From: a virus
Taxonomy: Duplodnaviria > Heunggongvirae > Uroviricota > Caudoviricetes
IMG/VR virus record: IMGVR_UViG_2511231131_000003
Reading direction: 5' to 3' (one strand)
DNA: 40,699 nucleotides
The position numbers and the translations under genes were made by a program. Of the stretch, positions 27,732-30,701 are shown piece after piece. Each line of letters begins with the position of its first letter. Positions within the stretch are counted from its first letter, which is position 1. Under the pieces are notes generated by a model. The model was not told the DNA's origin. It saw nothing but the letters and a program-made list of their open reading frames with translations, and did no database searches.

Positions 27732-28147
27732 GTTTTGCCCTGAAACTGGCGCGTGAGATGGGGCGACCCGACTGGCGTGCCATGCTTGCCGGGATGTCAT
27801 CCACGGAGTATGCCGACTGGCACCGCTTTTACAGTACCCATTATTTTCATGATGTTCTGCTGGATATGCACTTTTCCGGGCTGACGTACACCGTGCTCAG
27901 CCTGTTTTTCAGCGATCCGGAGATGCATCCGCTGGATTTCAGTTTGCTGAACCGGCGTGAGGCTGACGAAGAGCCTGAAGATGATGTGCTGATGCAGAAA
28001 GCGGCAGGGCTTGCCGGAGGCGTCCGCTTTGGCCCGGATGTGAATGAAGTTATCCCCGTTTCCCCGGATGTGGCGGACATGACGGAGGATGACGTAATGC
28101 TGATGACAGTATCAGAAGGGATCGCAGGAGGAGTCCGGTATGGCTGA
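27309..28147 (+). CDS. T: G-T fusion tail assembly chaperone (product of -1 frameshift at 27707-27713)
   Basis: T reading frame 27713-28147 (..FDGELSFALKLAREMGRPDWRAMLAGMSSTEYADWHRFYSTHYFHDVLLDMHFSGLTYTVLSLFF...) overlaps the 3' end of G in the -1 frame, as in lambda. Confidence 0.8.
27707..27713 (+). promoter_or_regulatory. programmed -1 ribosomal frameshift slippery heptamer GGGAAAG for G-T synthesis
   Basis: G frame reads ..A GGA AAG TGT..; a -1 shift gives GGG AAA GTG TTC GAC GGT GAG CTG (..GKVFDGEL), continuous with the T ORF ending at 28147. This is the known lambda G-T frameshift site. Confidence 0.8.
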
Positions 28148-30701
28148 ACCGGTAGGCGATCTGGTCGTTGATTTAAGTCTGGATGCGGCCAGATTTGACG
28201 AGCAGATGGCCAGAGTCAGGCGTCATTTTTCCGGTACGGAAAGTGATGCGAAAAAAACAGCGGCAGTCGTTGAACAGTCGCTGAGCCGACAGGCACTGGC
28301 TGCACAGAAAGCGGGGATTTCCGTCGGGCAGTATAAAGCTGCCATGCGTATGCTGCCTGCGTAGTTCACCGACGTGGCCACGCAGCTTGCAGGCGGGCAA
28401 AGTCCGTGGCTGATCCTGCTGCAACAGGGTGGTCAGGTGAAGGACTCCTTCGGCGGGATGATCCCCATGTTCAGGGGGCTTGCCGGTGCGATCACCCTGC
28501 CGATGGTCGGGGCCACCTCGCTGGCGGTGGCGACCGGTGCGCTGGCGTATGCCTGGTATCAGGGCAACTCAACCCTGTCCGATTTCAACAAAACGCTGGT
28601 CCTTTCCGGCAATCAGTCGGGTCTGACGGCAGATCGTATGCTGGTCCTGTCCAGAGCCGGGCAGGCGGCAGGGCTGACGTTTAACCAGACCAGCGAGTCA
28701 CTCAGCGCACTGGTTAAGGCGGGAGTAAGCGGTGAGGCTCAGATTGCATCCATCAGCCAGAGTGTGGCGCGTTTCTCCTCTGCATCCGGCGTGGAGGTGG
28801 ACAAGGTCGCTGAAGCCTTCGGGAAGCTGACCACAGACCCGACGTCAGGGCTGACAGCGATGGCACGCCAGTTCCATAACGTGACGGCGGAGCAGATTGC
28901 GTATGTTGCTCAGTTGCAGCATTCCGGCGATGAAGCCGGGGCATTGCAGGCTGCGAACGAGGCCGCGACGAAAGGGTTTGATGACCAGACCCGCCGCCTG
29001 AAAGAGAACATGGGTACGCTGGAGACCTGGGCAGACAGGACAGCGCGGGCATTCAAATCCATGTGGGATGCGGTGCTGGATACTGGTCGTCCTGATACCG
29101 CGCAGGAGATGCTGATTAAGGCAGAGGCTGCGTTTAAGAAAGCGGACGACATCTGGAGTCTGCGCAAGGATGATTATTTCGTTAACGATGAAGCGCAGGC
29201 GCGTTACTGGGATGATCGTGAAAAGGCCCGTCTTGCGCTTGAAGCCGCGAGAAAGAAGGCTGAACAGCAGAGTCAACAGGACAAAAATGCGCAGCAGCAG
29301 AGCGATACTGAAGCGTCACGGCTGAAATATACCGAAGAGGCGCAGAAAGCTTACGAACGGCTGCAGACGCCGCTGGAGAAATATACCGCCCGTCAGGAAG
29401 AACTGAACAAGGCACTGAAGGACGGGAAAATTCTGCAGGCAGATTACAACACGCTGATGGCGGCGGCGAAAAAGGACTATGAAGCGACGCTGAAAAAGCC
29501 GAAACAGTCCGGCGTGAAGGTGTCTGCGGGCGATCGTCAGGAAGACAGTGCTCATGCTGCCCTGCTGACGCTTCAGGCTGAACTCCGGACGCTGGAGAAG
29601 CATGCCGGAGCAAATGAGAAAATCAGCCAGCAGCGCCGGGATTTGTGGAAGGCTGAAAGTCAGTTCGCGGTACTGGAGGAGGCGGCACAACGTCGCCAGC
29701 TGTCTGCACAGGAGAAATCCCTGCTGGCGCATAAAGATGAGACGCTGGAGTACAAACGCCAGCTGGCTGCACTTGGCGACAAGGTTACGTATCAGGAGCG
29801 CCTGAACGCGCTGGCGCAGCAGGCGGATAAATTCGCACAGCAGCAACGGGCAAAACGGGCCGCCATTGATGCGAAAAACCGGGGGCTGACTGACCGGCAG
29901 GCAGCGCGGGAAGCCACAGAACAGCGCCTGAAGGAACAGTATGGCGATAATTCTCTGGCGCTGAATAACGTCATGTCAGAGCAGAAAAAGACCTGGGCGG
30001 CTGAAGACCAGCTTCGCGGGAGCTGGATGGCAGGCCTGAAGTCCGGCTGGAGTGAGTGGGAAGAGAGCGCCACGGACAGTATGTCGCAGGTTAAAAGTGC
30101 AGCCACGCAGACCTTTGATGGTATTGCGCAGAATATGGCGGCGATGCTGACCGGCAGTGAGCAGAACTGGCGCAGCTTCACCCGTTCCGTGCTGTCCATG
30201 ATGACAGAAATTCTGCTTAAGCAGGCAATGGTGGGGATTGTCGGGAGTATCGGTAGCGCCATTGGCGGGGCTGTTGGTGGCGGCGCATCCGCATCAGGCG
30301 GTACAGCCATTCAGGCAGCTGCGGCGAAATTCCATTTTGCGACCGGAGGATTTACGGGAACCGGCGGCAAATATGAGCCTGCGGGGATTGTTCACCGTGG
30401 TGAGTTTGTCTTCACGAAGGAGGCAACCAGCCGGATTGGCGTGGGGAATCTTTACCGGCTGATGCGCGGCTATGCCACCGGCGGTTATGTCGGTACACCG
30501 GGCAGTCTGGCGGACAGCCGGTCGCAGGCGTCCGGGAAGTTTGAGCAGAATAACCATGTGGTGATTAACAACGACGGCACGAACGGGCAGATAGGTCCGG
30601 CTGCTCTGAAGGCGGTGTATGACATGGCCCGCAAGGGTGCCCGTGATGAAATTCAGACACAGATGCGTGATGGTGGCCTGTTCTCCGGAGGTGGACGATG
30701 A
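28140..30701 (+). pseudogene. H: tail tape-measure protein H interrupted by an in-frame TAG at 28362-28364 (codon 75)
   Basis: ATG at 28140 gives MAEPVGDLVVDLSLDAARFDEQMARVRRHFSGTESDAKKTAAVVEQSLSRQALAAQKAGISVGQYKAAMRMLPA, then TAG, then the same frame continues FTDVATQLAGGQSPWLILLQQGG... to 30701 (total 853 codons as lambda H). Lambda has CAG (Gln) at this position by my recollection. Confidence 0.85.

Follow-up and report, generated by a model that had tools for sequence, protein, structure and literature searches.

An inherited amber codon in the tape-measure gene H of an argU-integrated lambda-like prophage of Escherichia coli O55:H7, probably an early step of prophage decay

The tape-measure gene H of a lambda-like prophage integrated at argU in Escherichia coli O55:H7 carries an amber codon in place of Gln75. 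This is very probably a vertically inherited mutation that has left H as a pseudogene at an early stage of decay, and not a conditional or recoded stop. The prophage was analyzed as a single stretch of 40,699 nucleotides (the window), which is identical at 40,699 of 40,699 bases to the argU-integrated prophage of strain DEC5D. The full form of this prophage was found in six O55:H7 genomes only. The nonsense lesion is already known from public annotation, as RefSeq marks H as a pseudogene with the label 'phage tail tape measure protein, internal stop' in all five genomes that carry the amber.

Gene H was located at 28140..30701 on the plus strand and was assigned as a lambda-type tail tape-measure pseudogene by translation, alignment with lambda and Pfam. 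The reading frame consists of 853 sense codons and a TGA. Translation of the whole gene gave one internal stop only, the TAG at codon 75 (28362..28364, plus strand; translation and comparison with relatives), in the context AAMRMLPA, stop, FTDVATQLAGG. Mechanical ORF calling broke the gene into a 74-residue ORF (28140-28364) and a 775-residue ORF opening with GTG (28374-30701). The frame is thus not uninterrupted over its full length, and because of the amber codon the locus was classed as a pseudogene of the gpH family and not as a functional member.

Codon 75 reads CAG (Gln) in lambda, phage ev207, E. coli ETEC1738 and the sister strain DEC5B. Codons 74-75 are GCA-CAG in lambda (J02459) and GCG-CAG in the closest relatives ev207, ETEC1738 and DEC5B, so the stop corresponds to a single C-to-T transition at 28362. 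The gene is of equal length to lambda H (J02459 10542-13103) and colinear with it, with 97.6% nucleotide identity and no indels; the two share 853 codons, a position between T and M, the Pfam domains and an ATGA overlap with M, and differ in codon 75 (CAG in lambda, TAG here) and at 17 other amino acid positions. The first-pass annotation had placed an in-frame TAG at codon 75 of an H gene otherwise full length as in lambda, had given Gln as the lambda residue at this position and had proposed a single C-to-T change; the translation, the lambda alignment, the J02459 sequence and the CAG of all relatives examined agree with it on each point. A Dcm-site deamination hotspot was also considered and rejected by inspection, the ancestral context GCGCAGTT not being CCWGG.

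Pfam was run at gathering scores with the intact DEC5B allele as query, which differs from the window at 4 amino acid positions including the stop. TMP_2 was matched at residues 54-256 with 234.6 bits (cut-off 30.2) and Tape_meas_lam_C at residues 627-701 with 74.5 bits (cut-off 23). The predicted mutant product is a 74-residue N-terminal fragment of gpH (28140..28364, plus strand; translation, ORF calling and Pfam), which stops ahead of almost all of TMP_2. In lambda, gpH is a trimeric ruler with its C-terminus (residues 818-842) in the tail tip, and acts with chaperones to initiate tail polymerisation (PMC10721106). Translation in the O55:H7 prophage would end after 74 residues, long before the C-terminal helix of the tail tip. 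Since H stops before nearly all of the tape-measure domain, the prophage is predicted from established lambda genetics to be unable to build tails on its own.

The window begins with the intD integrase at the argU (tRNA-Arg) prophage end (1..1164, minus strand; ORF calling and annotation), which places the prophage at the DLP12 attachment site. The tail operon has the lambda-like order V-G-T-H-M-L-K-I-J, with H between the chaperone genes G and T and gene M. Genes G (27309-27731) and T (27713-28147) for the tail assembly chaperones, both on the plus strand and placed from the annotation (L001 coordinates + 8139), are intact, and the junction sequence shows an 8-nt overlap between the end of T and the start of H. 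Gene M (30698..31027, plus strand; ORF calling, annotation and junction GTGGACGATGAAGAC) follows with a start codon that overlaps the H stop as ATGA. Because of this overlap the translation of M may be coupled to ribosomes that finish H, and a polar effect of the H amber on M is possible. The first-pass annotation had suggested that the prophage is kept for its cargo genes, which is a conjecture; this cargo (bor, lom and a SIR2 defence-like gene) is intact in the window copy.

The TAG allele was found in 5 of 5,426 complete E. coli genomes (DEC5A, DEC5D, DEC5E, TB182A and FDAARGOS_946); the stretch of H probed, an 81-nt segment around codon 75, is present in 3,128 of them. All five carriers are O55:H7, four according to the record name and FDAARGOS_946 according to PMC9413875. 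The allele also occurs in two IMG/VR contigs; the 82 matching phage records all lack it.

Forty late-region sites unite the five carriers against DEC5B and the outgroups, in a polarisation of prophage SNPs with ETEC1738 and ev207 that is confounded by mosaic recombination in the tail genes. On the chromosome, 33 kb contained 17 variable sites of which one was informative, and this site grouped the carriers against DEC5B and K-12. Between carriers, approximately 20 non-patch differences were counted over the 40.7 kb of prophage and approximately 9 differences over the 33 kb of chromosome, a similar divergence, as expected for co-inheritance.

Two further genes are frameshifted in the window. 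The nu1/nohD pseudogene, for the small terminase subunit (17793..18337, plus strand), has a 1-nt deletion after 17900 (AA to A), and the pseudogene of a phage N-6-adenine methyltransferase, Dam-like (2298..2854, minus strand), has a 1-nt deletion after 2383, which is G5 to G4 when read on the plus strand. RefSeq lists as other disrupted genes of this prophage two frameshifts and a short remnant. The nu1 and methyltransferase deletions were taken to be secondary because DEC5D shares them with TB182A only. In DEC5A and FDAARGOS_946 the amber is accompanied by a 1-nt deletion in V. In DEC5E it is accompanied by two deletions, of 8 nt in the major capsid gene and of 11 nt at ybcO/rusA, and by an insertion in a T run close to the SIR2 start. 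The DEC5B prophage has an intact H and no lesions. The H amber is the sole lesion common to all five carriers. Each secondary lesion is either multi-base or present in two independent assemblies, except the T-run insertion of DEC5E, and three of the six strike non-virion genes. The earlier reading of the element as a cryptic prophage gains from the nu1 and methyltransferase deletions here and from the V and major capsid lesions in the sister lineages that share the amber.

The amber probably arose a single time, in an ancestor shared by all five carriers, and seems to have been the earliest disabling event. Once virions were no longer made, other genes would have ceased to be under protective selection, and each descendant lineage would then have gained different frame-breaking indels. 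An amber common to all carriers, later indels private to the lineages and a lesion-free DEC5B fit such a knock-out in the founder with relaxed selection thereafter, in a comparison based on only four lineages.

Lambda tail-gene ambers of the laboratory 'sus' type grow on suppressor hosts only and make no tails on non-suppressing hosts. The O55:H7 mutation resembles them as a CAG-to-TAG amber in an essential morphogenetic gene and differs in being natural, in clinical isolates, and in hosts that lack supE, supF, supD and supP. DLP12 of E. coli K-12 shares with the O55:H7 element the argU site, the intD integrase and the gene run ybcN, ninE, ybcO, rusA, ylcG, Q, lysis genes, bor, ybcV, ybcW and nohD. 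DLP12 presumably lacks essentially all head and tail genes, whereas the O55:H7 element is full length (40.7 kb) with point lesions only, and on these grounds it would represent a much earlier stage of DLP12-type decay. O55:H7 is the progenitor of O157:H7 (PMC9413875), and the prophage pool of O157:H7 Sakai is similar in belonging to the same lineage, in its lambdoid prophages with scattered morphogenesis and packaging lesions, in a disrupted nu1 in Sp4 and in near-identical tail genes shared among prophages (Asadulghani et al. 2009, PMC2669165). It differs in that the argU prophage with the H amber occurs in its full form only in the six O55:H7 genomes.

The alternative that fares best, although it is still unlikely, is that the prophage is defective by itself yet remains mobile, with gpH supplied in trans by a lambdoid co-resident or the amber recombined away, so that the lesion would be reversible. 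DEC5D has six places that match H and two that match the 81-nt N-terminal probe; H-like genes are thus present on further lambdoid prophages of this genome, and gpH could therefore come in trans. Complementation and recombination allow defective lambdoid prophages of O157 Sakai to be packaged and transferred (PMC2669165). The DEC5B prophage differs from the other copies by 123 clustered substitutions, a signature of recombination, with one such patch at 28024-28041, a short distance upstream of the TAG. Against this alternative, the window copy also lacks a working nu1, and translation of M may be coupled to that of H. No donor of the DEC5B CAG haplotype was identified in the O55:H7 genomes, where the 501-nt haplotype matched at 100% only in DEC5B, and the single informative chromosomal site puts DEC5B outside the carriers, fitting a simple forward mutation.

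It is rather improbable that the amber is ancestral to all O55:H7 copies and that DEC5B regained CAG by gene conversion from another lambdoid prophage. In a published chromosome tree the carrier DEC5E branches off earliest and DEC5B most recently, with the relevant branches reported as unsupported (PMC9413875); the 17 variable sites of the 33 kb of chromosome, one of them informative, are too few to decide for or against this tree. Under its rooting, the amber would be older than all six strains and the CAG of DEC5B would have been restored by recombination.

Re-initiation downstream of the stop was considered very improbable as a source of a working gpH, here without its first 78 residues. 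In E. coli, ribosomes are known to re-initiate at start codons close to a stop, and an in-frame GTG 9 nt past the TAG (28374, plus strand, codon 79; ORF calling) opens the 775-residue ORF and is the only plausible re-start. No Shine-Dalgarno-like sequence was found upstream of this GTG (TGCCTGCGTAGTTCACCGAC) and the ORF is not expected to be efficiently expressed. Its product would lack the first 25 residues of TMP_2, and the later V, E and nu1 lesions in the carriers suggest that virion function had already gone.

The first-pass annotation had offered a supE-type amber suppressor in the host, which inserts Gln and would restore the wild-type residue; gpH would then be made at full length and the prophage would be tail-competent. 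A CAG-to-TAG change is precisely what supE undoes, and supE alleles do exist in the genome collection, where the allele probe recovered the positive controls C600, DH5alpha and DH1 and gave 155 records at 100%; among the 60 of these 155 matches listed, all resemble K-12 or laboratory-derived strains. The tRNA-Gln anticodons of the carriers were read at the metT-glnX cluster, located by synteny in each of the five genomes. The anticodon was CTG in glnV and glnX and TTG in glnU and glnW, so that all four genes are wild type in five of five carriers. Allele probes for the other suppressors found supF (tyrT CTA) in no genome of the collection, supD in one unrelated strain and in no carrier, and no full-length exact match to supP and no carrier of it. 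ARAGORN found no tRNA genes in the 40.7-kb window and an Rfam scan of the window returned IS009 only. The frameshifted nu1 in the same prophage copy is moreover irreparable by any suppressor. The suppressor alternative is thereby largely refuted, for glnV/X, glnU/W, supF, supD, supP and window tRNAs, and the chance that the stop is read as Gln in these hosts is extremely small.

Programmed readthrough or recoding of the H TAG, of the kind seen in phages whose late genes use TAG for Gln, is refuted by non-conservation and the absence of recoding machinery and was given practically no probability: the replaced codon is Gln, the usual TAG assignment in recoded phages, but there is one in-frame TAG in one gene, RefSeq has no other 'internal stop' in the prophage, the element carries no suppressor tRNA (ARAGORN, 40.7 kb) and the stop is restricted to 5 of the 3,128 genomes with the H stretch (close relatives) and is absent from the 82 phage records. 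The chance that the stop is an error of sequencing or assembly is equally negligible, and the amber is a real allele because five independently assembled genomes and two IMG/VR contigs agree. The change is a substitution, which the first-pass annotation had considered less likely than an indel to be an artefact, and not a homopolymer indel; the complete genomes with the same base come from two sequencing projects, and a further 39 sites that mark the same strain group co-segregate with it.

The preferred reading is therefore that of a vertically inherited nonsense mutation, and the locus should be read as the tape-measure pseudogene of a tail-defective prophage and not as a recoded or suppressor-dependent gene. 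Beyond correct annotation the finding carries little weight. It has modest value as a clean natural series of prophage decay, with a shared nonsense founder, distinct lesions in three sublineages and a lesion-free sister. If the DEC5B copy were in fact repaired, it would be a natural 'marker rescue', in which a nonsense codon and many patches were overwritten and the element became lesion-free again, and thus a concrete case of recombinational rescue in the O55/O157 prophage pool; in that case point-inactivated prophages of the EHEC lineage would not be dead but in a reversible dormancy. The element also shows an earlier stage of what is seen as the DLP12 remnant in K-12.

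The 2,562-nt sequence at 28140-30701 (+ strand) was 97.6% identical to and colinear with lambda H (J02459 10542-13103), and 98.7% identical to H of phage ev207. The surrounding tail genes were arranged as in lambda (V-G-T-H-M-L-K-I-J). The intact H allele of E. coli O55:H7 strain DEC5B matched the Pfam domains TMP_2 at residues 54-256 (234.6 bits) and Tape_meas_lam_C at residues 627-701 (74.5 bits). Lambda identity, domain content and gene order identify the locus, at sequence level, as a lambda-type tape-measure gene. In-frame translation gave 853 sense codons with TAG at codon 75 (context AAMRMLPA-stop-FTDVATQLAGG) as the only internal stop, and direct reading of the window placed it at 28362-28364, as in the first-pass annotation. 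The Gln given there for codon 75 of lambda was also correct: codons 74-75 are GCA-CAG in lambda, GCG-CAG in ev207, E. coli ETEC1738 and DEC5B, and GCG-TAG in the window. Relative to the nearest relatives (ev207, ETEC1738 and DEC5B) the lesion is a single C-to-T transition at 28362, converting Gln75 to amber. The stop lies 21 residues into TMP_2 and removes ∼91% of the protein; mechanical ORF calling split H into a 74-aa ORF (28140-28364) and a 775-aa ORF starting from GTG 28374.

The window was identical at 40,699/40,699 bases to a prophage of O55:H7 strain DEC5D (NZ_CP038386.1). An 81-nt probe centred on codon 75 matched 3,128 of 5,426 complete E. coli genomes, with 100% matches only in DEC5A, DEC5D, DEC5E, TB182A and FDAARGOS_946. 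The record names of the first four state O55:H7, and FDAARGOS_946 is counted as O55:H7 in PMC9413875. The amber allele was found in none of 82 matching phage records and was also present in two IMG/VR contigs, one with an 8-nt gap of a DEC5E-like kind. H is labelled as a pseudogene with 'internal stop' in RefSeq for all five carriers; the pseudogene is thus already known from public annotation and the event is of a commonplace kind.

Lambda defective in H makes heads and lacks tails. A 74-residue fragment would be unable to do the job of gpH, which forms a trimeric ruler within the tail tube, starts tube polymerisation together with chaperones and has its C-terminal helix (residues 818-842) in the tail tip (PMC10721106). 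The stop codon of H and the start codon of M overlap as ATGA, so translation of M may also be lowered. Rescue of gpH in trans from other H-like copies is possible: H is matched at six places in DEC5D, and the N-terminal 81-nt probe at two of these; in O157 Sakai, complementation and recombination rescue defective lambdoid prophages (PMC2669165). However, nu1 is non-functional as well in the window copy. Translation might conceivably restart at GTG 28374, but this codon has no Shine-Dalgarno-like sequence and its product would lack the beginning of TMP_2.

The whole element was aligned from all six O55:H7 genomes carrying the full-form prophage. DEC5B, with intact H (CAG), carried no other lesion. 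Among the H-amber copies, DEC5D (the window) and TB182A shared 1-nt deletions in nu1/nohD after 17900 (AA to A) and in a Dam-like methyltransferase gene after 2383 (G5 to G4), and DEC5A and FDAARGOS_946 shared a 1-nt deletion in major tail gene V (window-equivalent 27208). In DEC5E the major capsid gene had lost 8 nt (window-equivalents 24665-24672), the ybcO/rusA junction had lost 11 nt (window-equivalents 12782-12792), and a T was inserted in a T9 run close to the SIR2 start. Apart from the T-run insertion, these secondary lesions are real, as each either recurs in a second, independent assembly or covers several bases. Only the amber was common to all five carriers, among which H differed at one synonymous site; the rest of H has therefore not drifted. 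The nu1 and methyltransferase deletions, confined to DEC5D and TB182A, are later than the amber and sublineage-specific.

In the late region, 40 sites were common to the five carriers against DEC5B and the outgroups ETEC1738 and ev207. The 37 differences private to DEC5B were concentrated in these same stretches, a mark of mosaic recombination between lambdoid tail genes. Across 33 kb of chromosome (fldA to ybeR) the six strains had 17 variable sites in an almost star-like pattern, and one site grouped the five carriers against DEC5B and K-12. DEC5D and DEC5A differed at ∼20 non-patch positions in the 40.7-kb prophage and carrier lineages at ∼9 positions in the 33 kb of chromosome; these similar divergences fit co-inheritance of the prophage from a common ancestor. 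With an E. coli substitution rate of ∼1-5 x 10^-7 per site per year, these divergences suggest, as a rough estimate, that the carriers separated between centuries and ∼1 millennium ago. On the simplest account the amber would have arisen once, on the branch to the five carriers, and abolished tail production, and relaxed selection would then have admitted different secondary lesions in each sublineage.

The DEC5B prophage differed from the other five copies by 123 substitutions in patches (e.g. 3004-3239, 25500-25513, 28024-28041, 29612-30101, 31769-32581 and 33091-33470), ∼10 times the chromosomal divergence; one of the lineages, or both, must have recombined repeatedly with other lambdoid prophages. 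A 13-site patch in gene J (35512-35752), separating DEC5D, TB182A and DEC5E from DEC5A, FDAARGOS_946 and DEC5B, is a recombination tract in host-range protein J.

A published core-genome tree, some branches of which are poorly supported, places DEC5E as earliest-branching and DEC5B as most recent (PMC9413875). If the DEC5E-first rooting holds, the amber would be older than all six strains and the CAG of DEC5B would have been restored by recombination. The private DEC5B patch at 28024-28041 lies just upstream of the amber site, and a donor search with a 501-nt DEC5B haplotype returned a 100% match only in DEC5B itself. Such repair is considered unlikely; the identity of the locus in the window is the same under forward mutation or repair.

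The first-pass annotation had offered as an alternative that a supE-type suppressor in the host could restore the wild-type Gln, with supE and supF as the alleles to look for. The search covered the tRNA-Gln cluster, supF, supD, supP and tRNAs in the window. No tRNA gene was found in the window, and an Rfam search of it returned only IS009 (RF02111, 229.5 bits, 40458-40656, + strand), within the tail-fibre-assembly gene at the prophage right end. A supE probe (tRNA-Gln2 with CUA anticodon) matched 155 records at 100%, and the presence of C600, DH5alpha and DH1 among the 60 matches listed indicates that it works. The metT-leuW-glnU-glnW-metU-glnV-glnX cluster was located by synteny in each carrier. 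The anticodons were TTG in glnU and glnW and CTG in glnV and glnX in 5/5, so neither supE nor supB is present. The supF allele had no exact match in any genome of the E. coli collection, supD matched only one unrelated strain (DSM 498) and no carrier, and supP had no full-length exact match in the collection. Suppression is thus refuted as far as tested, and the frameshifted nu1 of the window copy would be beyond repair by any suppressor. Stop-codon recoding is ruled out by the lone TAG, the lack of a suppressor tRNA and the non-conservation of the stop. A sequencing artefact, which the first-pass annotation had thought less likely for a substitution than for an indel, is ruled out because five complete assemblies, produced by two sequencing projects, have the same base change.

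Among the matches listed from the 155 complete-genome supE records, the glnV (CUA) gene was unannotated by PGAP (features under match 'none'); the standard annotation of such records thus does not show suppressor tRNAs. Chromosomal pseudogenes lay near the glnV cluster (29821-31272 of chromosomal stretch L011 and equivalents): djlC was interrupted by an internal stop in each of the six O55:H7 strains, hscC and speF were frameshifted in DEC5A and FDAARGOS_946, and ybeQ had an internal stop in DEC5B only.

The prophage is flanked by tRNA-Arg (argU)/intD on one side and the ompT-envY-nfrA region on the other, and carries ybcN, ninE, ybcO, rusA, ylcG, Q, rzpD, bor, ybcV, ybcW and nohD. By its argU site, intD and this shared gene set it is therefore the full-length counterpart of the K-12 cryptic prophage DLP12; the K-12 copy is a remnant that has lost its head and tail genes, whereas the window element is full-length, 40.7 kb and lambda-like. 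The full form was found in the six O55:H7 genomes only, and related copies in many other E. coli covered ≤89% of the first 12 kb, with intD in most of those listed. A 535-aa SIR2-like protein (5640-7247, − strand; Pfam SIR2_2) gave a full-length match (780 bits) to PDC-S25, a candidate defence family in PADLOC. Its gene lies between a cI-like repressor and kil/gam genes, in the slot equivalent to that of rexAB in lambda, and on both grounds is probably prophage-borne anti-phage cargo; the annotated protein is shortened in DEC5E, which has the extra T.

At the molecular level the H lesion is of the same kind as in a laboratory lambda amber mutant, but is natural and has no suppressor found in its host. 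The element fits the picture of a 'defective prophage pool' in the O55/O157 lineage. It is an early-stage version of a DLP12-type cryptic prophage, and gives a picture of the DLP12 remnant of K-12 at a stage when it still had its head and tail genes.
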